From the NCBI GenBank assembly GCA_965541585.1, contig CBEUCH010000004.1, forward strand, positions 1 to 64,000: DNA of 64,000 bases, given 5' to 3'. The position numbers were made by a program, and so were the translations under genes. Source of the DNA: an uncultured bacterium (GTDB taxonomy: Bacteria; Zixibacteria; MSB-5A5; UBA10806). The notes under the pieces were generated by a model. That model ran no database searches. It was given only the letters and a program-made list of their open reading frames with translations, and was not told the DNA's origin. Positions 5,900 to 55,000 of this stretch are shown piece after piece (position 1 is the first letter of the stretch; every line of letters begins with the position of its first letter).

Positions 5900-6104
5900 A
5901 GTATCCTCCCTGAGAGGTATTTTCCCCGATGCCGTTCGCTGATGAAAACTACACCAATTTTTCTTTAATATATAATCGATGCTATGAAGGTGTCAAGGAT
6001 AATTTGTGCATCGCCAAGTAGAAGTAGCCAAGGCAATTGGATCGGAGAAGGCTTACTCAGAGCCTTTCCGTCAGCGAGAATACAGGACGAGCTCCCCTTA
6101 ATCT

Positions 6105-7541
6105 TTACTTTAGAAGCAGCATCCTCCTCGTAATGACATCATCTCCCGATGTCAGACGATAGAAGTAAGCTCCCGATGATATAGATTTATTATTGAGATT
6201 ATCCCCGTTCCAGACAAATAAATGTTCTCCTGCACCGAGTACCCTGTCTGCCAATTTATTCACCAGCCGACCCCGTATATCGAAAACCTCAAGCCTGGTT
6301 TTGGCTGTTTTTGGCAGGTAGATTCTTATTTTTGTCGATGAATTGAAAGGATTCGGATAAGCCTGAAACAGCTCTGCCTGGCGCGGCTTTGTCGGCTCAT
6401 CTCCTGTTCCTAATTCATTTAGAATATCCTCGAGCGCCTCGATGAAATCCACCATTTCCTCCATGAGCCCGGTGGAAACGCGAAGATGATGCTGCATGCC
6501 CCAGCCATTGCGAACATAGATGTTTCTCGACGCCAGCTGGGCAGTGACCGAGCCGGCATCACGGCCGACATCCACCATGAAGAAATTGGTCTCCGACGGA
6601 ATATATGAAAGACCCATACGGTCGAATTCCCCGAAACAGTATTCCTTGGTTTGATTCGCCAGATCGATGGTGTCTGTCATATGTTGTTGAGAATCCAACG
6701 ATGCCTTGGCAGCTTCCAGGGACGGCCGTGAGACGGTAGCATACAACTGAAAAGAACGCATCGCGCTTAAAGCCTCCTGGAGTCCAATGGCATAACCGAT
6801 GCGGGCTCCGGCCAGCCCAAAGACCTTGCTGAAAGTACGAACCACCACAACGTTTTTGCCGGACCGCACTAAATCTATGGCCGAAGGATAATCGTTAACG
6901 GTGATATAGTGGTAATAAGCTTCATCTATTATAGTCACTACCTCCTCCGGCAAATCGTCGACAAAATCGGATAATTCCGATGGATCGATGATAGTTGCCG
7001 TGGGATTGTTGGGATTGGTGATACAAACCGCGGAAGTGTCCGAATCAACGCTTTCCCTCATGGCCTGGAGGTTCACGCGATGATTGTCGTCGAGATCGAC
7101 ATACCTTGCAACGGCCCCGAAGAACTGGCAATCGGCCGGGAACTGGCCGTAGGACGGGTTGGGAACGACCACGTTGGAGCCGGGTTCGCTGAATGCCATG
7201 GCGCAGAGTCGAAGAATCTCCGTGCCTCCGGCGCCGCAGATGATTTTATCGGCCCCTATATCGAATCGTGATGCTAACTGCGCCGCCAGAGATTCTGCAA
7301 ACCAGTCCGGATAGCGGTGAGCCATCTCAGCTTCGCTCTGTATGGCCTGGATAGCCTCCGGGGATGGCCCCAATGGATTTTCATTAAAACAGAGGCGGCC
7401 CACATAATCGGTGATCATTCCCTGATCAGGCACACTGTCCGCTATCGCCTTTCGGTCGAGGCCCAACAGAGCCACTGCCGTGGCCCCGGTTATCGTCCCG
7501 ATAAACCCTCGCCGCGAGATCCCGTTAAAAATTTCATTCAT
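6105..7541 (-). CDS. Tat-exported HisC-like class I/II PLP aminotransferase fused to a T9SS-type/FlgD-like CTD
   Basis: SRRGFIG twin-arginine signal; NENPLGP, NPNNPT, DEAY, RTFSKVFGLAGARIGY (PLP Lys); QAYPNPFN...RRMLLLK. Start moved to ATG 7541 (GGGAGG RBS). Confidence 0.85.
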   Translation of the reverse strand: MNEIFNGISRRGFIGTITGATAVALLGLDRKAIADSVPDQGMITDYVGRLCFNENPLGPSPEAIQAIQSEAEMAHRYPDWFAESLAAQLASRFDIGADKIICGAGGTEILRLCAMAFSEPGSNVVVPNPSYGQFPADCQFFGAVARYVDLDDNHRVNLQAMRESVDSDTSAVCITNPNNPTATIIDPSELSDFVDDLPEEVVTIIDEAYYHYITVNDYPSAIDLVRSGKNVVVVRTFSKVFGLAGARIGYAIGLQEALSAMRSFQLYATVSRPSLEAAKASLDSQQHMTDTIDLANQTKEYCFGEFDRMGLSYIPSETNFFMVDVGRDAGSVTAQLASRNIYVRNGWGMQHHLRVSTGLMEEMVDFIEALEDILNELGTGDEPTKPRQAELFQAYPNPFNSSTKIRIYLPKTAKTRLEVFDIRGRLVNKLADRVLGAGEHLFVWNGDNLNNKSISSGAYFYRLTSGDDVITRRMLLLK

Positions 7542-7816: not shown

Positions 7817-7890
7817 GGCGGCGTAGCTCAGCTGGTTAGAGCAGAGGAATCATAATCCTCGTGTCCGGGGTTCGAGTCCCTGCGCCGCTA
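7817..7890 (+). tRNA. tRNA-Met (CAT, elongator type; CCA not encoded)
   Basis: Cloverleaf: GGCGGCG/CGCCGCT acceptor stem, TAGCTCAGCTGGTTAGAGC D arm, GAGGA-ATCATAA-TCCTC anticodon arm, GGTTCGAGTCC T arm. Confidence 0.93.
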
Positions 7891-9424: not shown

Positions 9425-10264
9425 TTAGCGGATCCAGGCACGCGGCGGGCGTCTCATGCGACGTTCGCTGAAGTCTTTGTCCTCCAGGCCCAGGTTGTAT
9501 ACGACCGACTCGTATATAACTTCCGTCCGGTGTCCGGTTTTAACATTTTTCATGGTGCGCTTTGTCACAGTAGTAATGGTCTTATCCCCACCGCCTTCAC
9601 CAACGGTAATTTCTTCGACTTTGTCAGCTGTGAAGACGCGGAAAAGTTCGTCCTGGGCATCGAAGTACTCTTCCCTTAATGGAAGGAGTGTCTCCTTTGC
9701 GATCCAGGAAAATCGCCTGACATAATCCACGGATGCCTTTGGAGTACTTTGTATCACATAGCAGTCATTTTCTCCAAGCTTTTCCTCACGAAGGAGCGTG
9801 TGCGTGTCTGACTCCAGGTCGCGACCTGAAACATCCTCGTAGGTGAAGTCCGATCCCACAAAGCTGGAGCGTTTGTCATCAGCCGCAATGCGGCGGATTA
9901 AGTCGATAGCCGGAATGAATATCCAGCGGTCATCCTCCCGGGCGGGATACTTCCAGACCATAAATGTCATCTGGCGGATGTCGCCGGGCTCGTGAAAATA
10001 CATGAAATATTTCTGGTTACTGTCCTTCGCTTCGTTTCTTCGCAGCATCGTCATAACTCGAATTCTTTTGCCGCCATTTTTGTCTATAAGTTCCATGGTA
10101 ACACTGGTTTTCATGTCGTTACCCTGATAATAGAACGCGCGCTGAGACTGCTCCATAATCTGGGTGGCGGTGAATTGTACATTCTCCGCGGATGGAGTTT
10201 GGCCGGAAGCCAATCCCCAGGACAGTAGAGCCCAATATGCAAGAGCAAAGGATAATCGTCTCAT
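9425..10264 (-). CDS. Outer-membrane lipoprotein-sorting (LolA-like) protein
   Basis: Signal peptide; DDRWIFIPA..RRIA..SSFVGSDFTYED signature. Confidence 0.85.
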   Translation of the reverse strand: MRRLSFALAYWALLSWGLASGQTPSAENVQFTATQIMEQSQRAFYYQGNDMKTSVTMELIDKNGGKRIRVMTMLRRNEAKDSNQKYFMYFHEPGDIRQMTFMVWKYPAREDDRWIFIPAIDLIRRIAADDKRSSFVGSDFTYEDVSGRDLESDTHTLLREEKLGENDCYVIQSTPKASVDYVRRFSWIAKETLLPLREEYFDAQDELFRVFTADKVEEITVGEGGGDKTITTVTKRTMKNVKTGHRTEVIYESVVYNLGLEDKDFSERRMRRPPRAWIR

Positions 10265-10491
10265 TAGACAACCCCTTTCTTGATAGCTTCTATTTCTTCT
10301 TCACAGCTTTTCAGATTGCACATTCTAAGTATCGATTTCATTGGGCACCAGTTCGAGAAGGCAGATTGCAGCAGATTAAAACCAACGATCGCGGTGAACA
10401 AGAGCCACCAGGGAGAATGATAGTGGGCGAGGGCAACGGAAATCAGCACGAAGCTTCCTGCCACGCCCCTAAGGGCTTTCTCCAATTTCAT
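10264..10491 (-). CDS. DUF2892 (YgaP-like) small membrane protein
   Basis: LRGVAGSFVL..WWLLFTAIVGFNLLQSAFSNWCPM; overlaps both neighbours. Confidence 0.85.
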   Translation of the reverse strand: MKLEKALRGVAGSFVLISVALAHYHSPWWLLFTAIVGFNLLQSAFSNWCPMKSILRMCNLKSCEEEIEAIKKGVV

Positions 10492-12812
10492 AATTCACCT
10501 CCTTTCAAAATGCGCGTCCCGGCAAAGCGCAACGCTGCCGGGAGTAAAAACAGCGTTGATAGTGTACTAAATATCATGAGAAGGGCAAAGAAAAAACCCA
10601 CAGTTACGTAAGGTGTCAGGGACGAGGCAAGCAGCGGTAGAAATCCCAGGGAAATCACGATGGCGTTACGCGCGATGGCGCGTCCGGGCTCGCCGAACAT
10701 ATAACGATTTGTTTCTTCCAGGCTTCCCGAGTTAGCATAATGCATCCGGAAACGCTGGAGGAAATGGATAGCAAAATCGATTCCCAGGCCCAGAGAAAGA
10801 GAGGAGCAAACTGCTATGGGCATATCGTAGTCTTTGCCTACCCACCCCACTAATCCATAGGTCAGCAATATGGCTATGGAGAGAGGTATCATTGAAAGAA
10901 CACCTAAGACCAAGGAACGGAACTGAATCAACATAAGGAGGAATACTACGGCGAAGCTTCCCAGGATCGCTTTCAGCATTCCGAAAACCATGAGGTCCTG
11001 CCACACCTTATTGATATATGTGAGACCCGACCAGCTTAACGTGATACCATCAGGCGGAGGATTAATATTCACGAAGCCAGCGAGCCGGTCTTCCACATCC
11101 TGCATCTGCTGGTTGTCGCCTCCCTTCATCTGCACCCAGATATTGGCCTGTTGTGATTTACGATCAAGGAAAATGTCAAGGTCGTTCGGGTCTCCTGAAG
11201 ATTGGAACAAGAAGAGGAATTGCCCCACAGCCTCCCTGGAATCCGGTACCCGATTGTATCTTTCATCATTGTCGTGTAAAACAAAGTTGATTCGCTTGAC
11301 GATGTCTGCGACCGAGGATGTCTTTCCTATCAGTGGATCATCTTCCAGATATGCTTGTACGCGGTCAAGATAGGAAACGACTTCCGGCTTTTTGATTATC
11401 TCCGGTTCATCTCCTTCTATCACCAGGTAGGCCATGTAGGTGCCGCCAAAAAGACGGTTCATGACGACATCCGCCACCCGCATGGGGTGTCCTTTTTTGA
11501 ACCATTTGACCGGGTTATCGTTTATCTGAATTTGCCGCACTCCGAGGATTCCCATAATAAGCGCCAATAGACCGAGGATAAGTACTACTCGGGCACGAGA
11601 AAAGGTGAACCGGGCAATTAGTTGCAGGAATCGGTCGATAATAGATGAGCGACGACTTTCTTTTTGCAGAAGAACTTTCTTCAGTTTTTCGTCGCTCATA
11701 AGGCTGATAACTGCAGGAACTACGGTCATAGAGAGGAACCAGGCAACCATAATGCCGAATGCTACAAAGAGTCCAAATACGCGCACCGGGGGGATGTTTG
11801 CCAACGCAAGTGAGGCAAACCCAATAGCGGAGGTCAGCGATGTATAAAACATGGGCCGATAAAGGGGGCCTTTGCATTCCAACATAGCCTGGCGCTTGTC
11901 CCTGATGATACGGTATCGATCGAAGAAAGCGCTCAACACATGCACATCGTCCAGGATAGCGATCGGCATAAGGAAAACGGGGATCATTGAGCTCATTATG
12001 TGAACTGTATTCCCGGTGCCAATCAAAAGTCCCATGGCCCAGATAACTGAAAACATAGCGGTCATGGCGACCGGCACCAAAAAACCAACGCTGCGGAAGA
12101 GCAAAAACACAAGTAGTAAAATAACCATGAAAGCCAGAGGTGCTACTAATGCCATCTGGAGGAACATCTGGTGGCCAAAGGTGTCTTCTGCGACAGGCAG
12201 ACCAGCCAGATGATAGGTTTGATTTGGAAGAAGTTCACGCTTTAAAATAGTCTCGATCTCGGCGGCGATTCGGTAGCTCATATCCTTCTGTTGAATCGGG
12301 ATGTAAAGGGCCAGAGCCTTACCATCGGCCGACGCGATCTTCTCATGTAAAAAAGGATTATCGGCAATGTCTCGCTGGAGTTGTTCGATGGCCTCCGGGG
12401 TTCGAGGAACATCTCTCATTACCGGGTGAATATCGAGAAATCCTCCCGAGGATTTCACATTATTTGTGGTGGTTATACTCACCACATCCTCGATAATCAC
12501 TCCCTTGATCTTAATGACTTCCGATATAATCCGTGCCACCCGTTCCAGCGATTCAGAACGGAAAATACCGTTCTCGTCGACGATCCCCACAACGATCAGG
12601 TCGTGGATACCAAATTCCTCTTTGACACGGTCATAAAGAACACGGTCGATCTGATCGGGCTCGAGCATATTTTCAGGATCGGTGTCGATTTTGATACGCC
12701 CGAACTGAAGACCCAGCAATACTGTAATTAGAATCGCCAACGCGATCACAGTTTTTGGACGATCCAGGGCGAATATAGTAAGTTTTTCAATGGGAAATCT
12801 TTTCATTGACAA
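10488..12812 (-). CDS. MMPL/RND-family transporter
   Basis: Duplicated 1+5 TM topology with two periplasmic loops; IAILDDVH and LGIDFAIH motifs. Confidence 0.92.
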   Translation of the reverse strand: MSMKRFPIEKLTIFALDRPKTVIALAILITVLLGLQFGRIKIDTDPENMLEPDQIDRVLYDRVKEEFGIHDLIVVGIVDENGIFRSESLERVARIISEVIKIKGVIIEDVVSITTTNNVKSSGGFLDIHPVMRDVPRTPEAIEQLQRDIADNPFLHEKIASADGKALALYIPIQQKDMSYRIAAEIETILKRELLPNQTYHLAGLPVAEDTFGHQMFLQMALVAPLAFMVILLLVFLLFRSVGFLVPVAMTAMFSVIWAMGLLIGTGNTVHIMSSMIPVFLMPIAILDDVHVLSAFFDRYRIIRDKRQAMLECKGPLYRPMFYTSLTSAIGFASLALANIPPVRVFGLFVAFGIMVAWFLSMTVVPAVISLMSDEKLKKVLLQKESRRSSIIDRFLQLIARFTFSRARVVLILGLLALIMGILGVRQIQINDNPVKWFKKGHPMRVADVVMNRLFGGTYMAYLVIEGDEPEIIKKPEVVSYLDRVQAYLEDDPLIGKTSSVADIVKRINFVLHDNDERYNRVPDSREAVGQFLFLFQSSGDPNDLDIFLDRKSQQANIWVQMKGGDNQQMQDVEDRLAGFVNINPPPDGITLSWSGLTYINKVWQDLMVFGMLKAILGSFAVVFLLMLIQFRSLVLGVLSMIPLSIAILLTYGLVGWVGKDYDMPIAVCSSLSLGLGIDFAIHFLQRFRMHYANSGSLEETNRYMFGEPGRAIARNAIVISLGFLPLLASSLTPYVTVGFFFALLMIFSTLSTLFLLPAALRFAGTRILKGGEL

Positions 12813-12914: not shown

Positions 12915-13067
12915 TGTCCCGCCCCCAATAGTTATACGACATTTTATGTAAGTCTTGCCATAGCAAAAGTCAAGTTTGTTTGAGGTTGGAGGGATTCAGG
13001 TGCGGGAGCCACATCCTGGGGCGCCGGGCAGCCTCGACAACAATAAGACAACAACGAGTTGTATATC
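12915..13067 (+). repeat. Dispersed repeat type B, copy 1 (IS3-like end + transposase tail)
   Basis: TGTCCCGCCCCCAATAG...GCCATAGCAAAAGTCAAGTTTG...GACAACAATAAGACAACAACGAG. Minus strand encodes APAPESLQPQTNLTFAMARLT*. Confidence 0.85.
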
Positions 13068-13209
13068 GTCGGCGAAGCCAGACGAGGATATCATTGAGCG
13101 ACATTGTCTTTAGTGCTGATTTTGAGTTGATTTATTGACAGCGGTCTCTTATTATTTTACCGGTTCTGTTAAAAAGGTTTTGACGACGTACACCGTGGAA
13201 AGGAAGCAA

Positions 13210-13852: not shown

Positions 13853-14043
13853 TGTCCTGCCCCCAATAGTTGTACCACATTTTAAGTTAGTCCTGCCATA
13901 GCGAAAGTCAAGTTTGATTGAAGTTGGATGGTTTCAGGTGGGGGAGATGTATCCTGGGCGCCGAGTAGCCGCGACAACAACGAGTGGTATATCTGTGGTG
14001 CTTTCTGGTGTTCTCTGGTGTCGAAAAGTGTAGGTCGGATTCG
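13853..14043 (+). repeat. Dispersed repeat type B, copy 2
   Basis: TGTCCTGCCCCCAATAGTTGTACCACATTTTAAGTTAGTCCTGCCATAGCGAAAGTCAAG...GCCGCGACAACAACGAGTGGTATATCTGTGG... Confidence 0.88.
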
Positions 14044-14214
14044 GTGTAATTCCTTGCGAGCCGGCGCAATAGACCTTCTTTCAAGGACTTACGGCGATTC
14101 ATAGGAGACACGATTTGGGCTGCGGTAACAATACGGTAACATTGTGAAGGAAAAAAAGACTGCTCCTGTTTCCCCAAACTATTAAAATTTTCGCAAAAAA
14201 ATCCCATTTTATAC

Positions 14215-14260: not shown

Positions 14261-15160
14261 ATGAATTACAACAACACTACAGGAGTTAGTGTGGACAATG
14301 CCATCACTATCAGAAGGCTTAGAGAATTAGGCTTAACCGACCATGAATCAAGAAGTTATTTGTCTCTATTGAAAAAAGATGTTTTGACAGTTTCTGAAAT
14401 CTCAAGGTTAGCGGGAATTCCTCGTGCCAACACTTATGAGGCCCTCGAGAAATTATTGGATAAAGGGTTATGTATATCGAAACCCGGGAAAGTAAAAAAA
14501 TATTCTGCTGCCGGTCCATCAAGTCTTGAAGAGAAAGTTCTTCCGGAGTTTGACAATAAAGCAGAAATAGAGATGCAAGCTTTATTGACTAAAAGGAAAG
14601 CTATCCATGAGAATGTTGGAATTTTGGTAAAGGAATTGACTCCTCTTTATAGAAATAGTCGCAATGAAGACACCCCCCTCGATTACATCGAGATCATGAA
14701 AAACCCGCATCAGATTCATAAAAGGTTCATAGAGTTGGTGGGCAAAGCTAAAGAGGAGATACTTGCTTTCGTAAGACCTCCTTATTCCGGCCCCAGGAAA
14801 AAGCTTGAAGAGCAAAACGAGCAGCAGACAACTTTGCTCCGTGGGGGGTTAATTATTAAGGCCATTTATGAGATTCCCCGAGACAAGGAAGAAATGGAAT
14901 GGCGGTATAAAATTATAGACAGAATGAGCAAGCGTGGGGAAGAGTCGCGCGTTTCTAAAAGCCTACCGATGAAAATGTTTGTCTTTGATGAGAAAATCGC
15001 CATGTATGCGTTAGAGGATCCTATTTCCGGGGAGACATTTCTTACCATGCAGGTTGTCGAGCACCGCGCTTTGGCCAAAAGCCTTAAGATGCTTTTTTAT
15101 CATATATGGGAGCAGGCCGAAGATTACCATATTCTGAAGGATTTATTGAAAAAAATGTAA
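14261..15160 (+). CDS. TrmB-family transcriptional regulator
   Basis: LGLTDHESRSYLSLL..EISRLAGIPRANTYEALEKLLDKGL wHTH; C-terminal AKEEI..MKMFVFD effector domain. Confidence 0.9.
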   Translation: MNYNNTTGVSVDNAITIRRLRELGLTDHESRSYLSLLKKDVLTVSEISRLAGIPRANTYEALEKLLDKGLCISKPGKVKKYSAAGPSSLEEKVLPEFDNKAEIEMQALLTKRKAIHENVGILVKELTPLYRNSRNEDTPLDYIEIMKNPHQIHKRFIELVGKAKEEILAFVRPPYSGPRKKLEEQNEQQTTLLRGGLIIKAIYEIPRDKEEMEWRYKIIDRMSKRGEESRVSKSLPMKMFVFDEKIAMYALEDPISGETFLTMQVVEHRALAKSLKMLFYHIWEQAEDYHILKDLLKKM

Positions 15161-43773: not shown

Positions 43774-44082
43774 ATGTCTTCGAAAAACCGCCTGATCAAC
43801 AAGCAACGGATGGCCAGCTTCCGGGCAGTCGAAACCGGCTTCTCATTGATTCGTGCAACCCGTAAAGGACTATCAGCTACATTTCACTATCATGGACATA
43901 TTCTATCTACCCCTGACTTTTCCACCACTGACGGAGAATCTATGCTATCTTACGTCTCAACTCACGGCATTAGAACAGTCTACCCCGTGATTGGTGATCT
44001 TTTTGCCTGGCTATGTGCAATGGGAGTTGCAGTACTCATAGGATGGGTATTCTTTGCTCGGTCGCTGCGCCCAGATTATTGA
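43774..44082 (+). pseudogene. C-terminal fragment of an Lnt/CN-hydrolase-like gene
   Basis: MASFRAVETGFSLIRAT..GLS..RTVYPVIGDLFAWLC resembles the apolipoprotein N-acyltransferase C-terminus; catalytic N-terminal part absent. Confidence 0.6.
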
Positions 44083-44335
44083 GGAACGCAAACCAGATGA
44101 ACCTGAATATCAGGAGAAAGTCCATCTCTTACTTCAAACGCCTTTTTGGCACGGTAGGTTCTGACGGACTACAATCATGGCCTATTTAATATTTTACAAT
44201 GGCAGCGAATTGATTCTAAATAGATTCTAGGGGAACCAGAAGAATTTTAATATTTTGATTTCTGCGGGGAAATAATTTCCAGCCTCCATTACACAAATAA
44301 ATGTACACGAAACCGACTCCATCTCTGGACAATAC

Positions 44336-44707
44336 TTACGAGTAACAGCCTTGCTTTATTTTACTTTTCAGAATGTCTTGTCTAGATACTATACCGATAA
44401 CTGCGTTATCCCGAGTAACTACTATACGTTTAATAGAGTAATCTAACAATAAGGCTGAAATTTGATCTACCGACGTATCTTCACTAACAGTTATCACCTC
44501 TTTGGTCATAATCTCAGTTACCGAAGCGATCAATTCGTTTTTTAGTAATAGATCGCGCTCCGTTACTATACCCACTAACTTACCTTCTTCGTTTATTATC
44601 GGAGTTCCACTAATTTGATGTTCAGTCATTATCTTGGCAACATCCGATATACCCGCATCTGCTTTAGCAGTTATAACATTCGTATTCATAATATCCTTTG
44701 CAAGCAT
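44336..44707 (-). CDS. Tandem CBS-domain protein
   Basis: AKDIMNTNVIT..LVGIVTERDLL..EIMTKEVIT..IGIVSRQDIL; GGAGG RBS. Confidence 0.9.
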   Translation of the reverse strand: MLAKDIMNTNVITAKADAGISDVAKIMTEHQISGTPIINEEGKLVGIVTERDLLLKNELIASVTEIMTKEVITVSEDTSVDQISALLLDYSIKRIVVTRDNAVIGIVSRQDILKSKIKQGCYS

Positions 44708-44746
44708 TTGTCCCTCCTTTTTGTGAGTCATTATTTAATATTTTAT

Positions 44747-45244
44747 TTATACCATTATATCAGCACCTTTCCAGTCAGATTGAAGAATTTTGCTATCATT
44801 CGCAGGATCTATCTTGACAATTAGTTTATTATCTCGTGTAATTACATAAATCCAAAAACCTACAACGAAAGGCAATTCTCCTATCTCCTCTTTAATCTCT
44901 TTAAGTCTGAATTTTGGAACAATAACCTCAACATGAGAATAGTCAAGGTTCGCTATATTATTTTTAATCTCCTTTACATGCATCGATGTATATACTACTT
45001 CATAAACAGCAGCTGCCTCACGCTGTCCAATATCCCCTACGACAATATCCGGTATCTTCTGACCAGGTTCAACCTTCCAGGCACCTTTCTCCCAATTTTT
45101 GTGGTAAGCAAAGATATAAGCTGGCTCAAATTCTTCTAGTAACATCTTGGTCATAATAAGAACCACGAAATCATGAATTATTATATGATATGGATCAATC
45201 CGATCAGCACTTATTTTCTTCCGCATGATATTAATATCAATCAT
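44747..45244 (-). CDS. Hypothetical protein (AT-rich)
   Basis: 165-aa ORF with AAGGAG RBS; IPDIVV..VYEV weakly PD-(D/E)xK-like. Confidence 0.55.
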   Translation of the reverse strand: MIDINIMRKKISADRIDPYHIIIHDFVVLIMTKMLLEEFEPAYIFAYHKNWEKGAWKVEPGQKIPDIVVGDIGQREAAAVYEVVYTSMHVKEIKNNIANLDYSHVEVIVPKFRLKEIKEEIGELPFVVGFWIYVITRDNKLIVKIDPANDSKILQSDWKGADIMV

Positions 45245-45379
45245 ATTTTAAACAACTCTCCTTTTATCTATTTTATCTGTCTTTTATTTCAAATCCGCCT
45301 GATCACTGTAAAGAAATATTAATGTCATTCTATTATGATATCGTCATCCTAAAGATGAAATTCAGCGTTTTATTTATCA

Positions 45380-45453
45380 TGTCCTGCCCCCGTTTATTGT
45401 ATGACGTTGTAAGTTAGTCCTGCCACAGCGAAAGTAAAGCTTGTTTGAGGTTG
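45380..45453 (+). repeat. Dispersed repeat type B, copy 4 (truncated)
   Basis: TGTCCTGCCCCC..AAGTTAGTCCTGCCACAGCGAAAGTAAAGCTTGTTTGAGGTTG. Confidence 0.85.
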
Positions 45454-45503
45454 TTGAACTTCCAATCTCTAACCCAAAAATGGAGGGTTTTACGGGAGGC
45501 AGA

Positions 45504-46754
45504 TCAAGACTGCAGGTGATGAAGGCGCATCGGTTGGAATCTTCCATAAGTCAACGAGCGCCAGAGCCACTCGAAGGGTCCGAACCGGAAATAGCTCAGC
45601 CATATCGGTGATACGATCAGCTGAATTATCCATATGCCGAAGACAAGCAAGATCTGGCCGTAACGGGGTATTTCACCGAAGAGACCAAAGCCATGCCCGT
45701 TGAAAATAGTAGTGCAGATTAATGTCTGAAGAAGATAATTGGTCAGGGCCATTCGTCCCACCGCCGAAAGAGGTTTGATTATATTCTTGAAACGGGCGGT
45801 TTTACAAATTAACATTATCACTCCGATGTAGGCCATACCGATAAACAGCGATCCCCAATAGTTGAATTGTATGCCGTAGAAGAAGGAAAAGTAAATCGAC
45901 CAATCCGCCCGGAAATTACGTACGATGCCATAGCTAACAACAGGCAAGCCAACGACGAGCCCAAAAGCTGCCATGGACGCGTAAAACTTTCTTGAGCGTT
46001 CTCCGGTGAGCACTCCAAACTTGTAGAGTGCCATACCGATTAACATCAGTCCCCCGGCACGCCATCCCCCCCAAATAGCAAAGACGAATGTTTGCATGAA
46101 TATAGCGCTGGAAGCGCGATGCCCTAACTGGCCCACCCACCCGGCTTGCTGGGCTCCGATTTCAATTTGAATCATCTCGGATGTAGGTTTCCAGAACTCC
46201 ATCATGCCGTTGATGGCTTCAGGCGGCCAGAATTTCATGGACCAGCCAAAGAAAAGATAAATAGCGGTGGAGACTGAGATCGAAAGCAGGCCGAATATGA
46301 GAAGCCTCCCGGGTCTGACATTGCGTAACAGATAGACAACAAGCCCGCAGCAACCGTAAGCAACGAGGATATCCCCGGACCATAACAGGTAAGCGTGCGC
46401 CAGTCCGATAAGAATCAATATTATTATTCGACGATAGTATATTCTTGTTACGCTGCCACCACTGGCTTCTATGCGCGAGACTATCATGATCACACCGCCG
46501 CCAAAGAGAATGGAAAAGATGGTCATGAATTTCTGATCGGCGAAGATATGGCTCAAAATCCACACCCAGCCGTTGATCCCGGTTAAGTCACCATATGTTG
46601 TGGGGTTGAAATAAGCGGCCTGAATCATCGAGAAATACTGGATGTTCATTATCAGTATGCCAAGCATTGCAAAACCGCGCAGGGCATCTACGGCGATGAT
46701 GCGCTCGGGCGGGGCAATTGGAATTGCATCAGTGGGACGTTCGGTTTGAGTCAT
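45504..46754 (-). CDS. DUF418 (YeiB-like) membrane protein
   Basis: DALRGFAMLGILIMNI, KFMTIFSILFG, GRMALTNYLLQT, GPFEWLWRSLTY. Confidence 0.93.
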   Translation of the reverse strand: MTQTERPTDAIPIAPPERIIAVDALRGFAMLGILIMNIQYFSMIQAAYFNPTTYGDLTGINGWVWILSHIFADQKFMTIFSILFGGGVIMIVSRIEASGGSVTRIYYRRIIILILIGLAHAYLLWSGDILVAYGCCGLVVYLLRNVRPGRLLIFGLLSISVSTAIYLFFGWSMKFWPPEAINGMMEFWKPTSEMIQIEIGAQQAGWVGQLGHRASSAIFMQTFVFAIWGGWRAGGLMLIGMALYKFGVLTGERSRKFYASMAAFGLVVGLPVVSYGIVRNFRADWSIYFSFFYGIQFNYWGSLFIGMAYIGVIMLICKTARFKNIIKPLSAVGRMALTNYLLQTLICTTIFNGHGFGLFGEIPRYGQILLVFGIWIIQLIVSPIWLSYFRFGPFEWLWRSLTYGRFQPMRLHHLQS

Positions 46755-46939
46755 AATCCGCGGGATGATACTCCAAAGAACGGTATCGTGAATGATTTAG
46801 TGTTCCTCAATTTGCTCATCTTATTTCCGCAAAGTGCAACTTAGATTATATTATGGACTTCCGACGACCGTCAAGCCGGGTTTTCTCAACGGCTGGCGAG
46901 TTTGTCTCTAATGGCCTGGCCGTCCTGTGTCATTTAACA

Positions 46940-47016
46940 GTCCTGGCCTATAGTACCTCATTTAGGGTAGTCCTGCCATAGCTAAAATCAAGTTTGTTTG
47001 TAGCTGCATGGCTTCA
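46940..47016 (+). repeat. Dispersed repeat type B, copy 5 (degenerate)
   Basis: GTCCTG..TAGTCCTGCCATAGCTAAAATCAAGTTTGTTTG. Confidence 0.7.
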
Positions 47017-47097
47017 TGCGCAGGGCAAATTCAAAACGATAAGGGTTAAAGAGAATATGGATATCTGTGGCAGAACATTTAAACGGTTTTCAGAGAT

Positions 47098-48270
47098 TCA
47101 GCGGGTATACAGGGAATTATCAGAAACTTCTGCTGCCTGCTTTTTCCTAGGCACCTTAAGCGAAAAAATCATATCAATAAACACTATAACCGCTCCGGCC
47201 ATAAAAGTGGCCTTATAGCCAAAGATGCTCCAGGCTATTCCCCCTGTGACAGGAATGATTACGGCAGTAATATGATTCGCCGACATACCAAAAGATAAAC
47301 AGTTCGTAAGATCCTCGGCCGGGCACATTTTGCTGAGAAACGATTTCAATGCGATGGATGATCCGAATAAAACATTATCAATAACATAGAACGCTATTAA
47401 TACCGGCAGATAATTTATCAATGCGTAACCGGAAAAGATAAAAACCAATAAGAAAGAACATCCTGCCAATAATGCGCGCTCCCCCAGACGGTCGCTCATC
47501 TGACCCATAAACCGGTTGGTGAAAATTGTAATGAGGTTACTGACCAGCATAATGATCGATATATATGTTATGCTCAGATTGTGGTTTTTCACGAGGAGGA
47601 AGATCGCAAATGTGGTGAAGATATGCCGACGGCAGCCCCTGAGAAAAGCCAGAGTATAGTAGAGCCAGTATTTTTTATAAATCCTTATCTTGCGCTTTTC
47701 CGATCTTCCTCTGTTAGCCGGCAGGGCTACGGTCAAATATAATCCTATCCCCAGAACCGATGCCCCTATCAAATAAAAGGTTTCCCTGAAGCTCAGGAAT
47801 AATGTCAAAAACAACACCAGACCTGCGCCCGTCAACCCCGCCATTGATTCATACGATCTCAGTCTTCCCTGAGCTTTTCCTAATTCCTTTGAATCTGTAA
47901 GAAGCAATAACTGCGATGAATTGGTAGGTTCAAAGTAATGAAAGCCAAATGACATCAATACTGTCGCCAGGCCAAGAGCTATTATTGATGGCGCCAAACC
48001 GCAGAGAACCAGCCCCGATCCGATTATAACAATCGAAACGGACGCTATTTTCGATTCTGTAAGATAAAGCGCCAGTGCCCCAACACCGAAGGCCAATAAC
48101 CCTGGGATCTCCCTTACAGCTTGAATCAGACCGACATCTGTCGGAGAAGCATCAAAAACCTCCACTGCAAAATTATTAAACATTATTCGCCACGTATAAA
48201 AACCGATCCACATAATAACTGATGAAAAGGTTATGGTGTAGACTGAGACTTTCTTAAATCGCAAAGACAT
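47098..48270 (-). CDS. MFS transporter
   Basis: About 12 TM; REIPGLLAF, GCRRHIF, GQMSDRLGER motifs. Confidence 0.88.
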   Translation of the reverse strand: MSLRFKKVSVYTITFSSVIMWIGFYTWRIMFNNFAVEVFDASPTDVGLIQAVREIPGLLAFGVGALALYLTESKIASVSIVIIGSGLVLCGLAPSIIALGLATVLMSFGFHYFEPTNSSQLLLLTDSKELGKAQGRLRSYESMAGLTGAGLVLFLTLFLSFRETFYLIGASVLGIGLYLTVALPANRGRSEKRKIRIYKKYWLYYTLAFLRGCRRHIFTTFAIFLLVKNHNLSITYISIIMLVSNLITIFTNRFMGQMSDRLGERALLAGCSFLLVFIFSGYALINYLPVLIAFYVIDNVLFGSSIALKSFLSKMCPAEDLTNCLSFGMSANHITAVIIPVTGGIAWSIFGYKATFMAGAVIVFIDMIFSLKVPRKKQAAEVSDNSLYTR

Positions 48271-48463
48271 GCTCCAACTGTTGTACCACAATTTAGGTTA
48301 GTATGGCAATCTTAAGGTCAAGTTTGTTTGGATTTGGAGGACTTCAGGCAGAAGGCAGTATCCTCGTTAGCTGTGTAGCCGCGTCAACAATACGTCAACA
48401 ACGAGTGGTATATCTGTGGCGTTTTCTCGTATTCCCTGGTGTCGAATAGTGTAGTTCGGATTC
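48270..48463 (+). repeat. Dispersed repeat type B, copy 6
   Basis: GTTGTACCACAATTTAGGTTAGT..GTCAAGTTTGTTTG..GCCGCGTCAACAATACGTCAACAACGAGTGGTATATCTGTGG..GGTGTCGAATAGTGTAGTTCGGATTC; colinear with copy 2. Confidence 0.85.
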
Positions 48464-48768
48464 CGCCGTTAACCGGAGGAATTGGTATCAGATTTAAGCC
48501 CGATCAGCGCACTTACATAGAATTGTATTCAAACCTCGCTTTCTCCCAGCGGCCATTATCCGCGAGAGATTTGCTTGCTAGTCGAATCGATTGGGATCGA
48601 ATCCCAGCGTGGATGACTTTGAATCTGAGTTCCATGCTCAAGTGGAATGATATCGCGGCAACTTTCGCGATAGAAAACATACTCGCTATAGCGTATAAAT
48701 ACCACGGTTCAGCTATTCACCCTCCCGGCCGCGGAGTTATGATATCGATCCCATATGAGTGTTTCTGA
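48457..48768 (+). pseudogene. C-terminal remnant of a TonB-dependent receptor
   Basis: RIPP..LSARD..SRI..W.TLNL..IENIL..YKYHGS..PGR, typical of the last barrel strands; begins at the end of repeat B6. Confidence 0.6.
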
Positions 48769-48905
48769 ACCTACCATTAAGTCTGTTGAGTAATGTGGTC
48801 TTGCCGTGATCTATATGACCAACAACTCCCATGTTTAATTCTGGCATTTCTATATTCATAATAATGAATAACAGAAGCAGTTTTTAAAGGGTGCGAAGAT
48901 AATTA

Positions 48906-49649
48906 TCAATCCATTGGCATGGTTTTTCTGGCTTTGTAAACCTCACTTAACTTTACATCTGTTGAATATATTCCTTCGTTGTCTCCTGCGCAAATAAGTT
49001 CCTTTCCCCAAGGGTCATAGATTGAAGAGTGCCCCGCATATTTTATATCAATCATCCCAACAGTATCGCTTGACATAATAAAAGATTGTGTTTCTATTGC
49101 TCTTGCTTTTAATAATGTTCTAAAATGATCTGTTCTAGCTTCTCCCCATTGTGCTGGCACTATGATTATTTCAACTCCCTTTTTCTTTAATTCATTAGAT
49201 ATTTCTGGGAATCTTAATTCGAAACAAATAATCAAGCCCAACTTGCCGAAAGAACTTTCAACCACATTAAAATTGTCTTTTCCTTGTGCAAAATATTTAT
49301 GTTCATCTCTAAATCTAAAAAGCTTGTTTTTTCCTCTCTCATAAATTAATTTTCCTTTGTCAATAATGAAACCCACATTATAAACAAGTTCATGTTCCCG
49401 CCTTATCTCAGGTAAGGTTCCTCCCATGACGAGATTATTTTCCAAAGATATTTGTTCGAGTTGCTTTTTTATTTGTTTAGTTTTTTGTGCATGCTTTTTT
49501 AGATTTTCATTATCAAAACCACAGCTAAACATCTCAGGAATCAAAGCAATTCCATCCTGTGCTTCTCTTAAATAGGAATATATTGTTTCTATGTTTCCTT
49601 CTACATCACCTAACTTTAAATTTGACTGAATTGTATATAATCTTGTCAT
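48906..49649 (-). CDS. Carbon-nitrogen hydrolase (omega-amidase / Nit2-YafV-like)
   Basis: PEMF, KNKLF, ICFELRFPE triad; ARAIETQ; AT-rich. Confidence 0.9.
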   Translation of the reverse strand: MTRLYTIQSNLKLGDVEGNIETIYSYLREAQDGIALIPEMFSCGFDNENLKKHAQKTKQIKKQLEQISLENNLVMGGTLPEIRREHELVYNVGFIIDKGKLIYERGKNKLFRFRDEHKYFAQGKDNFNVVESSFGKLGLIICFELRFPEISNELKKKGVEIIIVPAQWGEARTDHFRTLLKARAIETQSFIMSSDTVGMIDIKYAGHSSIYDPWGKELICAGDNEGIYSTDVKLSEVYKARKTMPMD

Positions 49650-50866
49650 TTAAGCTGTTTTTTTAAATCTTCAATTACTTCATATATTTTTGTTGTTCCT
49701 TCTTTTATTTGATTCACATTTGTTGCAGAATAAGAAATTCTTATATATCCTTCAAATTCCTTTCCAAATGAAGATCCTGGGACTATTGCAACACCCCGGT
49801 CTAGACACAATTCCAAAAGTCTTTTTTCATCCATTCTTCCTGGAATATGTGGATTGAGATTAGGAAATAAATAAAATGCTCCTTCGGCCTGTTGAAGTTC
49901 AGGAAATATTTCTTTTAATCCTCGATAAGCAACATCTCTTCTTTCTTTGAGTCCATTGATGAGCTCTCCAAACCATTTGTTTCTTTTTTCTTTTTCACTC
50001 AAGCCTTTTGCAAAACCATATTGCAATGAAGTTGCAACGCCTGCACATTCTGTATATTGCCCCTTTGCCATTTTTCGAATAGCTTCTTCATCTCTGCTTA
50101 CGGCAAATCCTATTCTAAATCCAGTTGCAGCAAATGATTTAGAAAAACTGAATACAGAAATGGTTTCTGGATTGTCAAATTCTAGCATGCTCGTATGTTT
50201 TTTATCATCAAAAATAATCTCGTTGTAAGGTTCATCGGAGACAATTATAGTCCCATATCTTCTACACAGCTCATCTATCAGTCTTGATTCTTCAAAAGAA
50301 AATACTTTTCCTGTAGGATTTTGAGGAGAATTATGATAAAATGTGGATGGATTGTATTCATGTAATGCTTTTTCAAGCTTATTGGGATTAAAGGTTAGTC
50401 TTTCATTTATTTCCTCTAGAGGAAGGGTTTTAAATTCTGTTTGTGTGTAAGGAAATATATTCCCTGTTAAACAAGGCCAATACGGGCTAAAGCCTAAAGC
50501 CTTTCTTTTTTCAGGTAATTTAAAGCTAAGTTCTAATCCTTGTTGCCCGCCATTGACACACACAATGTTATCCCGAGTTAAATCATTTATGCCTTTTTCT
50601 TTAAGATAGCTCAAAACAGCATCTTTAAACCAGTCCGCTCCTCCTGATTTTGGATATTTTGTGAGCCCCTTAGCTACCAGTCCTTCTATAATACCGTCAA
50701 TAATGTATTCAGGCGTGTCAAGTCCAATTAATTCTCCTCTCTGAAATTTAATAATCGCTTTTTTTGTTTTTTCTTCAATTTTCCCAACATCTTCACTAAT
50801 TGCAACAATTGTTGATAATCCCATTTCAAAACAAGGATGAAATCTGTCTTTTATATTGTCAGTCAT
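49646..50866 (-). CDS. Class I/II PLP aminotransferase (AspAT-like)
   Basis: NSPQNPTG, SDEPY, SFSKSFAATGFRIG, PGSSFG..RIS; ATGA overlap with the hydrolase; AT-rich. Confidence 0.9.
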   Translation of the reverse strand: MTDNIKDRFHPCFEMGLSTIVAISEDVGKIEEKTKKAIIKFQRGELIGLDTPEYIIDGIIEGLVAKGLTKYPKSGGADWFKDAVLSYLKEKGINDLTRDNIVCVNGGQQGLELSFKLPEKRKALGFSPYWPCLTGNIFPYTQTEFKTLPLEEINERLTFNPNKLEKALHEYNPSTFYHNSPQNPTGKVFSFEESRLIDELCRRYGTIIVSDEPYNEIIFDDKKHTSMLEFDNPETISVFSFSKSFAATGFRIGFAVSRDEEAIRKMAKGQYTECAGVATSLQYGFAKGLSEKEKRNKWFGELINGLKERRDVAYRGLKEIFPELQQAEGAFYLFPNLNPHIPGRMDEKRLLELCLDRGVAIVPGSSFGKEFEGYIRISYSATNVNQIKEGTTKIYEVIEDLKKQLK

Positions 50867-50924
50867 TTTTCCCCTAATCAGAGATCAAGAATTCTTTTTA
50901 AAGATTTACTCAGCCTAGAATATA

Positions 50925-51290
50925 TTAATTACTCTTTTCCCTCTTCTTCCTTTTTTCTTCAGCCTTAACCTGATCGGGGAAAATTTCAGAAAGCCTTTTG
51001 TTGCCTTGTTTTAAAACTTTGAGGTTTGTCTGAGATATTGCAGGTGAGATAATCTTTCTCCTCACAGTTTTACTGAGTCTCAATCCTTTTTGCCCGTATT
51101 CTTAGTGTTTCTTATTTCTTTCTCTTTTGGGTCTTTTTTCCATACCTTTGGCATATGTCAATAATACTTTTTTTAAGCCAGTTCCTTCAACATCTTTCAT
51201 TGCAGTAAATCCTGCCTTGTCACTCGCACATGTAATTTCAAATTCATATCCCTCCAGATCAGGAGAAATGATCTTGACTTCTATGTCTTT
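50925..51290 (-). pseudogene. rps6e: Decayed archaeal-type ribosomal protein eS6 (S6e)
   Basis: ISPDLEGYEFEITCASDKAGF..KDVEGTGLKKVLLT..KGM..KKH*EYGQKGLRLSKTVRRKIISPAISQTNLKVLK; in-frame TAA at 51102-51104; N-terminus missing. Confidence 0.78.
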
Positions 51291-51510
51291 AAGCACTAAT
51301 TCTGCGAATTGCTTTGAAGGCCCTACTTTTTCCCGGATTCTTTCCCATCTGAGCAAATAGCTACGTAATAATTCTTGCCGCGCTTATAAAATAACCCAAT
51401 ATCTTCTCCTCTCCGGCCCGGGCACTAAATGTGTCACATGGCCTTCTGAGAAGATTACAGTTAAAACGTAACTGTTTGTCAAGCAATAAAATGAGTGGTC
51501 AGATAAAAAT

Positions 51511-51533
51511 AATAGCGGTGCGCCGCTATTTGT
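51511..51533. repeat. Hairpin overlapping a direct repeat of the tRNA-Met 3' end (candidate attR)
   Basis: AATAGCGG-TGCG-CCGCTATT palindrome; 51519-51533 matches 7881-7895 at 14/15. Confidence 0.5.
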
Positions 51534-52030
51534 TGCCTGATGACCTCAATTCTTATCCCAAGATGCTGATATCTTTATATACAAGGATGAATTAGCGGGA
51601 CCGGTCAACGTCCGGGACGTCATACCGACACACATCATTCGCATAAATAGAATGCGATGGCCGGCTGCAATTATACGGACCATCAAAGGTCGGAATGTCT
51701 GATTACTTATCTTTTTGCGCTGGTCTTCCAGACCTGCTACCCCCCAGAGTGGTATGACATTGAATTTGTGAGATCATAATCAAATTACCTCTATTTTGAA
51801 TTAATCCTTTCATTCCGCAATTGTTTAAAAGGGAAACATCAATACCGGCCGATAGAATAACTCCTTAGATCTACTCCATTAACAACTTCTGGTGATTTGC
51901 GCAATAAAATCAGGCCCGCAATATAATCAGACCTGATATTAGCCCGATAATGTTATTGACGAGGACAATAGTCCCTTATTGACCTGTTCAGGATATTTGG
52001 GAGGAGTGAGAAACTATTACCCCTGATCCC

Positions 52031-55000
52031 TTGAAAATAGAGATGAAAGACTCGACCGTTAAAAATGAAATAATCGATGCTTCTATCCCTGCCACAAGGA
52101 AGCTCCATCAGATTTCTCAATCGGTAAGCGATAAATTATATAAAAATCTATTCCATCACTCAAATGATGCAATCATAGTGCACGATTTATCCGGCAATAT
52201 ATTGGATGTGAATATGAAAGCGGTGGAGCTGTTTAATTGTACCAGTTCTAAATTCAAGACACTTAATATGCGTGATCTGCATCCTCCCACCGCCGTCGAG
52301 GCATCAAAGAAGGCGCTTGAGCTTATTTCTAAAAGCGGATCCGTCAATTTCGAAATAGATTTCAGAAAAAGTGACGGTGAAATTTTCCCTGCGGAGGTTT
52401 CGTCCAGCTTGATCGACGCGGACGGGTTAAGAATTATCCATGGCATTATCCGGGATGTGACTGAAAGAGGAACAGCAGAAAAAGAGCTGAGGGAAATCGA
52501 AAAGACGAACCTTGCGCTCTTGAATGCTCCAGCGGATCCGTCTCTTCTGTTAGACAGGGAAGGGATAATATTGGCCCTTAACAATGGAGCGGCAAGAGCT
52601 CTCGGCGGACCTGTAGGTGAATTGATTGGCAAGAATATATTAGGATATTTCCCCCCTGATCTGGCCAAATCCAGAAAGGATTATATTGACAGGGTGTTTC
52701 AAACTGGAAAGCCTGCTCGATTTGAGGATGAGATGTCTGGAGTTATTTATGATAATTCCATTTATCCTGTTTTCGATGAGAAAAGCAAGGTGGATAAGGT
52801 AGCCGTGTTTGCAGCCGATGTCACCGAACGCGTGCAAGTTGAGAAAGCGTTGCGGGATAGCGAAGAACGCTACAGGGCTATCTGGGAAAACTCCCCCATA
52901 GGGATATGCCTTACAGATCAAGAAGGTAAATATGGATACGTAAATCCCACTTATTGTGAGATTTATGGTTATTCCAAGGATCAACTGGTGGGCAAAAGAT
53001 TCTATGATATTCTAAGGCGACGGGGATTTAAAGGAGATCGTAAGAAAACCTATCAGAAACTATTCAAGAAGGGAGAACCCCTGCCGCTGGGCGAGATAGA
53101 GTTCTTGAGTTCTAAAGATGAACAGATATGGGTTCAGTATACGGGAGACTTCATCAGGGAAAACGGAGTGCCCAGGTATCTTGTTTCAATGAATATAGAT
53201 ATTACCGAGCGTAAGCGAGTGGAGATAGCGCTACGTGAAAACGAGCAAAAATATAAATCGATATTCGAATCGTTTCTCGATTTTTATTATCAGGCCGATA
53301 TGGACGGATTATTGATAAATGTGTCCCCATCGTGTCATGCTCTTTCCGGCTATACCCCTGACGAACTAATAGGCTGCCAGGTTCTGGATTTATGTCCCGA
53401 CCCTGCCCAGAGGAAAGCACTACTGGACACGTTGTTTAGAGAGGGATCAGTTACCGACTATGAGGTGACATTACGGGACAAAAGCGGCAAGGACATCCCC
53501 ATATCAACGAATGGCCGACTTATTCCGGATGATCAGGGCAAACCAATTAGAATAGAGGGGACTTTTCGGGATATTACGAGGAGAAAGCGAGACGAGGAAG
53601 CGCTTGCGGAAAGAGAAGAATTGCTCGGGGCAACTATTGAGTCGACAGCCGATGGCATTCTGGTTGTGAATGAGAAGGGTGAAACCACGCATTCAAATAC
53701 ACGGTTTGCGGAAATGTGGCGGATACCGCAAGAGCTTCTGGAAACAAACGATGATAATAAGCTATTAAGTTACGTGATGGATCAGTTGAAGGAGCCCCAG
53801 GCGTTTCTTACAAAAGTGCAAGAGCTTTACAAATCACCTGACACTGCCATGGACACTCTTTACTTCAAGGACGGACGGATTTTCGAAAGATATTCCTGTC
53901 CCTTGATCAAGAATCAAGGGATAGCAGGGCGGGTCTGGAGTTTCAGAGATATCACTGATTTAAAAAGGGCGGAACTGGTCCAGTCTACTTTGCATAAGAT
54001 ATCCGAGGCGACGAATCGCTCAAATGATATTATCGAGCTGCTGGGAACGATTCGAGAGATCCTCGGCGCATTGACCGATACCAGGAACTTCTATGTAGCC
54101 CTCTACGATGATGCTACGGAATCATATTCGTTTCCCTATAGTGTGGACGAGCACGATGGAACGGATTTCGCCCCCGAGCAGATGAAAAAGAGCCTTACCG
54201 ACTATGTCAGAAGAACAGGCAAACCCCTGCTCGCTGATGAGAAAACTCATAAGATCCTGATAAAAAAGGGCGAGGTGGAATCCGTGGGCGAATCATCGCC
54301 GATCTGGCTGGGTGTGCCGCTTGAAGCTCCGCGCGGAGTTATCGGCGTGATCGTTGTACAGGGCTATACGGATCCGACTATGTATGGCATTTCGGATTTA
54401 CATCTATTGTCTCTTGTTTCCGGCCATATTGCATTGGCTATAGAACGTAAAAGGGCAGAGATCGAACTTGACGTAGAAAAGGCTTATCTCGAGCAATTAT
54501 TCGAAAGCGCTCCCGAGGCAATCGTTGTCGTTGGGAACGACAGCCTGGTTGTCAGGTTTAATAGCGAGTTTACGCGAATGTTTGGCTACACGATAGGTGA
54601 ATCGCGAGGCAGATCAATAGATGATTTGATCGCCCCGGATCATTTAAACAGGGAAGCTTCTTCAATAACGCGGCAGGTATCGTCAGGTGAGACTTGCAGT
54701 CTCGAAACCCAAAGGCGACGCAAAAACGGATCATTTGTTGACGTGTCGATACTGGCAACGCCTATCAGGGTCCAGGGCGGGCAGGTGGCAATATATGCAA
54801 TCTACCGGGATATCACGGATCGCAAACAAGCGGAAAAACAATTGCGGCAATCGGAAGAAAAATACAGAACTCTGTTCGAGACTATTCATGACGGCATAAT
54901 TATAACTGATCTTAAGGAAGATATCATATTTGCCAATCCGGCGGCCTGCAATATTTTCGGATACCCCCGCGAAGAACTTATGGCCAAGAATCTTCGACAA

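Follow-up and report, generated by a model that had tools for sequence, protein, structure and literature searches.

The window analysed here is the first 64,000 nucleotides (64 kb) of a 244,769-bp contig (CBEUCH010000004.1) from the genome of an uncultured Zixibacteria bacterium (GCA_965541585.1). It carries, on the minus strand at about 48,755–51,340, a block of about 2.6 kb of archaeal type, composed of a pseudogene of the ribosomal protein eS6, a class I aminotransferase (AT), a Nit2/omega-amidase-like C-N hydrolase (NIT) and a stub of the translation factor gene aIF2-gamma, in that order. We consider it highly probable that this block is a captured piece of a DPANN archaeal chromosome, in which the translation genes at both ends are dead and the AT-NIT pair has been kept. 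The genome that holds it (3.52 Mb in 40 contigs, a metagenome-type assembly) has a completeness of 98% and a contamination of 0.94%.

Composition and gene content of the block

The G+C content (GC) over 49,001–51,000 was 0.324–0.346, compared to a genome mean of 0.489 (standard deviation, sd, 0.026), and the block as a whole, at 0.346, was the lowest among 6,853 sliding 2.6-kb windows of the genome. Its tetranucleotide distance from the genome (0.049) exceeded that of all 1,337 non-overlapping windows (mean 0.017, sd 0.004), which bears out the low-GC block claimed in the preliminary description. All four parts of the block had a GC of 0.33–0.37, resembling that of DPANN loci (0.28–0.36), and the AT homologues found in other bacteria matched the GC of their own flanks. 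Outside the block the window is bacterial, encoding NtrC-type sigma-54 activators, a type IX secretion system (T9SS) sorting domain, NapA/G/H-like proteins, a resistance-nodulation-division (RND) exporter and c-type cytochromes, both multihaem and SoxX-like. Among 40 relatives ranging from genus to class, none matched eS6 by profile search and none matched AT at E 1e-40 or better, and the DNA of the block was absent from the relatives' genomes searched. The block shows all the marks of an inter-domain acquisition: its composition is foreign, relatives lack it, its genes stand in a donor-type order, and its junctions were confirmed independently. In 12 other low-GC regions of the genome (54 open reading frames, ORFs), no archaeal translation genes were found; these regions hold restriction-modification, SIR2, Thoeris-TIR, D5-type primase and CARF regulator genes as well as ordinary genes.

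The upstream end of the block is formed by the relic of eS6 (rps6e). Its frame is split by an in-frame TAA into two minus-strand ORFs (51,102–51,356 and 50,925–51,083), which separately scored 40.7 and 22.3 bits against PF01092 (cut-off 26) and, when read through the stop, 60.2 bits (E 4e-16, profile positions 33–124), indicating that the broken eS6 frame suspected earlier is real and matches its family profile above the cut-off. With the NCBIfam models PRK04290.1-3, the remnant scored 68.1 bits, below the whole-protein cut-off of 135. In a control, the eS6 search matched only the four archaea among 14 reference genomes. When 5.8 billion proteins were searched with the read-through, at least 120 matches were obtained, and all those listed carried PF01092, with identities of 59–73%. 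The nine organism-named matches among those listed came from Nanoarchaeia or Nanoarchaeota (three) and Pacearchaeota (six), in agreement with the DPANN-like (Pacearchaeota/Woesearchaeota) style that had been noticed before.

Like the eS6 proteins of Nanoarchaeia and Pacearchaeota, with which it shares 65–73% identity over 75–90% of the read-through, the relic has zero indels from ISPDLEGYEF to FPDQ and a Lys-rich tail; unlike them, it lies on a bacterial chromosome, is interrupted by the TAA and has no recognisable ATG. The first ~30 codons are missing or unrecognisable (profile positions 1–32 unmatched), and 9 of 15 conserved N-terminal columns differ. In the core, 8 of the 59 columns conserved at 90% or more were substituted; 31 real eS6 proteins have 1.55 such changes on average and at most 8. 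Five of these changes, namely G to C (in ITGASDK), G to A, G to R twice and R to S, are the substitutions at conserved Gly and Arg that had been claimed. The remnant has no complete frame with a start codon and N-terminal domain, and it is, judged from its sequence, a decaying pseudogene and no working member of the family.

The downstream end holds a part that the preliminary description had overlooked, the N-terminal stub of aIF2-gamma. The ORF that contains the stub (48,737–48,859) is 40 codons long, and the homology stops after ...GRFRNTH (His35, at 48,755). The top NCBIfam models were both aIF2-gamma equivalogs, PRK04000 (35.8 bits, E 5e-9) and TIGR03680 (33.6 bits); the models of EF-Tu (22), EF-1-alpha and SelB (20.5) scored about 13 bits lower, and Pfam GTP_EFTU gave 30 bits. 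The match covers positions 5–38 of the 412 in PRK04000 (cut-off 315 bits), domains II and III of the ~400-aa factor being missing. Over 34 aa, the stub shared 71% identity with the aIF2-gamma of a Nanoarchaeota locus (L026), and over 32 aa it shared 69% with that of another locus (L132).

Between the two relics lie two intact genes, the stop of AT overlapping the start of NIT as ATGA, an overlap that supports their co-expression. In AT, the pyridoxal phosphate (PLP)-binding Lys243 and residues N183, D211, Y214, R251 and R376 were invariant in a 28-sequence alignment; we take these from the family literature to form the fold-type I active site. The nearest solved relatives of AT are the aromatic and aspartate aminotransferases of Pyrococcus, and its next best match within its own genome was only 30% identical. 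In NIT, the triad Glu39-Lys107-Cys142 is intact and aligned with that of 3p8k, which is among its nearest solved chains together with mouse Nit2 (2w1v, E 7e-20) and yeast Nit3 (1f89, E 3e-19). NIT scored below every NCBIfam equivalog cut-off (PRK10438, YafV-type, 93 of 249 bits; de_GSH_amidase, 88 of 355 bits). Of the transaminase and omega-amidase named in the preliminary description, the families PF00155 and PF00795 are secure, and "omega-amidase" is a family-level reading below these cut-offs. The closest relatives outside the host lineage were P0002 (AT, 58%) and P0125 (NIT, 63%); both list the same length, 2,977 bp (JGI), for their longest contig, and on this ground AT and NIT appear to be neighbours there too.

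An archaeal-type TTTAAAAA box had also been proposed in front of AT. Its position and spacing were confirmed, and the eS6-AT spacer of L026 also has TTTAAAAA, 37 nt before the AT start; the count of the octamer alone is at chance, with 8 copies in the window versus 5.15 expected (14 of 100 shuffles reached 8), three of them on the coding strand of the fragment. From sequence and position, the copy before AT is likely to be a relic archaeal TATA box, and that before the aIF2-gamma stub is possibly another.

Table 1. Features of the archaeal-type block and its junctions in the window
Feature	Position	Strand	Details
Host-side orphan ORF, 109 aa	48,439–48,768	plus	Abuts left junction; no Pfam family at E 1 or better
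Left junction	48,755–48,770		aIF2-gamma homology ends at 48,755; host-side plus-strand ORF ends at 48,768; GC changes from 0.25–0.38 to 0.50
aIF2-gamma N-terminal stub	48,755–48,859	minus	35 codons of homology, including G1 motif GHIDHGKT
TTTAAAAA octamer	48,881–48,888	minus	21 nt before start codon of aIF2-gamma stub
NIT, intact C-N hydrolase, 247 aa	48,906–49,649	minus	PF00795, 116.5 bits, E 1.7e-33
AT, intact class I aminotransferase, 406 aa	49,646–50,866	minus	PF00155, 157.5 bits (cut-off 19.7), E 7e-46
TTTAAAAA octamer	50,895–50,902	minus	28 nt before AT start codon
eS6 (rps6e) pseudogene	50,925–51,335	minus	Profile match covers 50,979–51,290; in-frame TAA at 51,102–51,104
Right junction, less sharply placed	51,320–51,400		eS6 homology fades at ~51,300–51,335; GC 0.47–0.50 by 51,370–51,430
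Terminator-like hairpin with T run, host side	51,511–51,530	minus	Upstream of fragment on coding strand; pattern match only, 2 in region versus 2.3 expected

Gene order, donor and route of entry

The gene order of the block was compared with that around eS6 in archaea, using the 30 best loci of 60 genomes with a match among 101 Nanoarchaeia sampled (flanks of ~1.5 kb). In 12 of the 30 loci, eS6 is followed immediately by aIF2-gamma in the same orientation, the gap ranging from −4 to 601 nt. Two of the three Nanoarchaeia genomes found to carry AT have it between or beside these genes, in the order eS6, AT, three genes, aIF2-gamma in L026, and AT, one gene, aIF2-gamma in L134. The eS6-aIF2-gamma neighbourhood of Nanoarchaeia (L026, L134, L152 and others) thus has the same order and strand as the block and differs in that NIT is part of it in no sampled archaeon. 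The synteny of rps6e, aminotransferase and amidase expected in DPANN genomes was accordingly found for eS6, AT and aIF2-gamma, the amidase not being found there. With identities of 47% for AT, 61–65% for eS6 and ~70% for the aIF2-gamma stub, these loci represent relatives of the donor rather than the donor itself.

At L026, a TrmB-like gene, read from its translation only, stands just upstream of eS6. Two regulators of the TrmB family, which is typical of archaea, were also seen in low-GC stretches, one in the window (14,261–15,157) and one at G000:C21 ~9,650–10,670 (L142), and one of the two carries DUF7436. At L134 (G410:C38), about 10 small same-strand ORFs (3,400–6,900 of the locus) lie upstream of AT, and this run has the look of an element integrated beside the AT/aIF2-gamma site.

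Several observations weigh against a DPANN chromosome fragment with a retained enzyme pair. AT was found at E 1e-60 or better in only 3 of 401 sampled Nanoarchaeia genomes, and no close NIT was present among the same 401 (25 matched, at 25–40% identity), so that no sampled archaeon has the full four-gene order. In a quick IQ-TREE phylogeny of AT (SH-aLRT 99–100), the window clade together with P0002 was sister to a mixed clade of one Nanoarchaeia-named, three Zixibacteria-titled and two Ignavibacteriales-titled sequences and one Elusimicrobia metagenome-assembled genome (MAG) and did not fall within a clearly archaeal group, and the AT of L026 stood elsewhere in the tree on a long branch. The nearest named relatives of NIT were from Aquificota (52–56%), and no donor closer than 58% (AT), 63% (NIT) or 73% (eS6) was found. 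As for retention, sigma-70-like promoter matches were at chance (13 versus 11.1 expected), and the 87% identity of NIT in a second population is the neutral expectation at ~6% nucleotide divergence.

The best AT matches were mixed and all at ~50% (Zixibacteria, Elusimicrobia and Nanoarchaeia), the family occurring widely in Ignavibacteria, Krumholzibacteria and related groups and only sporadically in DPANN archaea. Scanning JGI metagenome contigs with AT gave one relative at 49% and two distant ones only, and the best eS6 match (72%) lay on a 2,754-bp JGI contig. Of the three products named in the preliminary description, eS6 is thus archaeal by its best matches, and this did not extend to AT, whose matches are mixed, or to NIT, whose matches are bacterial (Aquificota). 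The AT phylogeny alone does not name the donor, and since the best matches of AT and NIT are mixed or bacterial, the archaeal origin of the block rests on the relics, the gene order and the composition. The simplest reading is a round trip, in which AT and NIT moved from bacteria into a DPANN archaeon, between eS6 and aIF2-gamma, and from there into this bacterium.

Within the AT tree, the sequences of L018, L019 and L021 (titled Zixibacteriota) and of L022 and L023 (titled Ignavibacteriales) formed one tight clade with end branches of at most 0.04. The RpoB proteins of G041 and G446 were about equally far from that of the window's genome (66% and 65%), the 66% match coming from a MAG titled Zixibacteriota and the 65% match from one titled Ignavibacteriales. 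Sequence comparison suggests that these differently titled MAGs are closely related, or that one of the titles is mistaken.

None of the four features of the block is an integrase, transposase, replication or capsid gene; the nearest tRNA lies at 7,817, with none close to the block, and no direct or inverted repeats framing the junctions were found. On these grounds the location inside a bacterial island, as first described, is not supported. Both ends of the block cut through genes, and a recombinase, an attachment target and repeats, as expected of a mobile element, are lacking. The lack of such signs and the gene-cutting ends point to a random fragment captured by illegitimate recombination, which is a route of foreign DNA uptake in naturally competent bacteria. 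According to this proposal, an AT-rich DPANN archaeon (Nanoarchaeia, of the Pace- or Woesearchaeota type) would have been the source of a random piece of chromosome of ~2.6 kb that entered an ancestor of this FCB-type sediment bacterium, where illegitimate, end-joining-like recombination, with no mobile element taking part, linked it to the chromosome. The piece would have had the donor order eS6, aminotransferase, C-N hydrolase and aIF2-gamma, the breaks leaving eS6 without its start and aIF2-gamma with just its first 35 codons. After the transfer, the eS6 and aIF2-gamma ends would be dead DNA that mutates and is deleted in some populations, and the AT-NIT pair would be kept and translationally coupled.

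How the DNA reached the cell may be considered further. We regard it as unlikely, though worth stating, that the fragment is the footprint of cell contact, in which a Nanoarchaeia-type DPANN archaeon, now or formerly attached to this bacterial lineage and not to another archaeon, leaked chromosomal DNA into its host. If this were true, the relic would offer a way of matching, by sequence, an uncultured DPANN lineage to the bacterium it lives on, and the AT-NIT pair, which has been exchanged in both directions between DPANN and FCB-type bacteria, would belong to a metabolic interface that the two share. Similarly improbable is an indirect route, by which a carrier (an archaeal virus or plasmid, a vesicle, a gene-transfer particle or another bacterium) rather than naked DNA brought the fragment in. 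Such a carrier would suit an AT family that has clearly passed between DPANN and FCB-type bacteria on more than one occasion, the apparent sharing of one short JGI contig by the closest non-host relatives of AT and NIT, and the mobile or defence DNA in the other low-GC islands of this genome. It fits poorly with a block whose genes are all chromosomal ones, for housekeeping and metabolism, arranged as they natively are in Nanoarchaeia, and which lacks an integrase, replication or capsid gene, end repeats and a tRNA target, and with the absence of eS6 and AT from all 40 relatives.

Junctions and fate of the fragment in other populations

The preliminary description had placed the block at 48,780–51,300; its location was right, and its extent proved slightly wider on both sides (Table 1). 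To follow the junctions, Logan contigs of four runs from four studies (X1, X2, X3 and X5) were compared with 46,500–53,500 of the window. An 11,122-bp contig (X1 record 5) matched 48,579–50,938 with 189 differences (2,360 nt) and 51,004–53,500 with 196 differences (2,497 nt), and therefore spans both junctions, with insert and flank equally diverged (~8%). The left junction was also bridged by X2 record 9, and the right one by X5 record 27, which joins 50,938 to 51,333; the X3 contigs were short pieces only and bridged nothing. The bridging contigs differed by 5–10% from the window, indicating that they represent other populations and not the same data, and the presence of insert and flank together in these diverged populations indicates that the insertion predates their split. 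The check proposed earlier for coverage breaks thus came out in favour of continuity, contigs from other studies running across both junctions without a break there.

The uninterrupted site was not identified in relatives: the flanking major facilitator superfamily (MFS) gene stands in another context in G007, and the query used gave no match to it in either G001 (89% complete) or G002 (95% complete). The orphan ORF that abuts the left junction is perhaps a gene remnant. A reading of it as the C-terminus of a TonB-dependent receptor, suggested by resemblance, was dropped, as it had no Pfam match at E 1 or better and no paralogue in the genome.

Three deletions were seen in these populations, and all fall in relic or spacer DNA, none in AT or NIT. 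That in X5 (50,939–51,332) removes essentially the eS6 relic, that in X1 (48,418–48,578) takes away part of the orphan ORF near the left junction, and that in X2 (48,467–48,690) lies within this ORF. The AT pieces in X2 and X5 differed by 5.0–7.2%, and the X5 piece spanning NIT by 10.3% (79 of 768). In two diverged assemblies, the frames of both AT and NIT were open; the AT protein was 96% and 94% identical to that of the window, and NIT was 87% identical in the second population.

Selection on AT and NIT was judged by 2,000 neutral simulations at 4–10% nucleotide divergence, instead of by dN/dS. In the simulations, the neutral identity of AT was at most 94.3%, and between 0.9% and 15% of the trials kept an open AT frame. 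Taken with the observed identities of 96% and 94%, the open frame and the invariant residues, this indicates that AT is under purifying selection. The constraint is weaker on NIT than on AT, and selection on NIT is not demonstrated. The decay of eS6 with retention of the metabolic genes, as first proposed, is therefore supported for AT, which lies above the neutral simulations, beside an eS6 with a stop and eight changes at conserved sites.

These data also bear on the possibility that the whole block, including AT and NIT, is a non-functional passenger that has not yet decayed. Promoter-like sites at chance level, a NIT identity close to neutral drift and a GC that has not shifted toward the host value would all be expected of such a passenger. 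The identity of AT, at or above the neutral maximum, and an open AT frame that would survive in only 1–15% of the trials speak against it, as do the two open frames with intact catalytic residues in diverged assemblies. Moreover, the neighbouring eS6 has gained a stop and its conserved-site changes, and relic or spacer DNA has been lost in three populations, AT and NIT having been spared. We therefore consider a pure passenger improbable and favour a captured fragment of which the enzyme genes have been kept and are presumably expressed in the bacterium.

An artefact, in which archaeal reads were misjoined into a bacterial contig during assembly or binning, would be imaginable for a metagenome-type assembly of 40 contigs and a block of such extreme composition, AT-rich DPANN archaea being common in sediments, but it can be practically discounted, as it needs two false joins 2.6 kb apart, repeated independently in the diverged contigs of three other studies that carry the insert with its flank, and as the decay of eS6 is unlike a fresh archaeal contig. 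In line with the earlier claim, the equal divergence of insert and flank in X1, the bridging in three other studies and the decayed eS6 argue for a real transfer rather than a chimeric join.

Proposed function, surroundings and known cases

A transaminase combined with an omega-amidase makes Gln- or Asn-dependent transamination irreversible, an arrangement described as a "ketoglutaramate ratchet" in section 10 of the article PMC6302742. Judged from the two protein families and the coupling of the genes, the AT-NIT pair most likely works as such a ratchet. Gln or Asn would give its amino group to a 2-oxo acid, NIT would hydrolyse the oxo-amide product and so render the transamination irreversible, and the pair would serve amino-acid or methionine salvage. 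The likeness to the Gln/Asn transaminase and omega-amidase pathway (mammalian glutamine transaminase K, GTK, with Nit2; yeast Nit3; E. coli YafV) lies in the coupling of a class I aminotransferase to a Nit2-branch hydrolase with a Glu-Lys-Cys triad. The pair differs from the GTK/Nit2-type pathway in that its AT is nearest to the Pyrococcus enzymes and is no proven glutamine transaminase, and in that its NIT scores below the equivalog cut-offs.

Two families of repeats occur in the surroundings of the block. One is a repeat of ~200 bp whose core (CAACAACGAGTGGTATATCTGTGG region) is invariant and which precedes plus-strand genes, at 48,272–48,470, 12,922–13,075, 13,860–14,050 and C18:57,172–57,260; relatives as distant as the same order have many copies of it, at 75–88% identity. 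A conserved leader, a small RNA and a miniature mobile element are all conceivable readings of this repeat, and Rfam gave nothing in 44,000–53,000, including the copy at 48,272–48,470, the sole one in that range. The second repeat (46,949–47,016, ~50–70 bp) lies between a DUF418 gene and the MFS gene and has copies in C22, C24, C18 and C4:21,589 and in relatives. Elsewhere, the large low-GC stretch G000:C15 43,500–86,316 is a mobile or defence island, with genes for a CARF-sigma54-type regulator, a D5-type primase, type I restriction-modification, an ADP-ribosylglycohydrolase and a RecD-like helicase.

Archaea-to-bacteria transfer is accepted, but almost all cases are deduced from trees of whole genes, which settle neither the donor nor the mechanism nor the risk of contamination. 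In the block described here, the cut eS6 and aIF2-gamma ends name the domain and class of the donor, preserve the donor order and mark the break points, and they indicate that no mobile element was involved. The populations from four studies further show the fate of captured DNA, of which the useless ends decay or are deleted and an enzyme gene is kept under selection. The block is among the few concrete cases in which DNA moved from a DPANN archaeon to a bacterium and not in the reverse direction, and it bears on the question of the neighbours of DPANN archaea. Within the portion of the literature covered by our search, no description of a bacterial genome with the relic of an archaeal ribosomal protein gene, or of a DPANN-to-Zixibacteria transfer, was found, which does not prove that none exists.

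The process itself, inter-domain transfer, is known, and the block is a well-documented example of it; what is unusual is that the fragment, its breaks and its differential decay are legible and are replicated across populations. Archaea-to-bacteria transfer has been inferred for Thermotoga and Aquifex, and the present case resembles those in having archaeal genes in a bacterial chromosome, a foreign composition and a patchy distribution. Unlike those cases, which usually rest on trees of whole genes, here the fragment itself is visible, with truncated informational genes at both ends.

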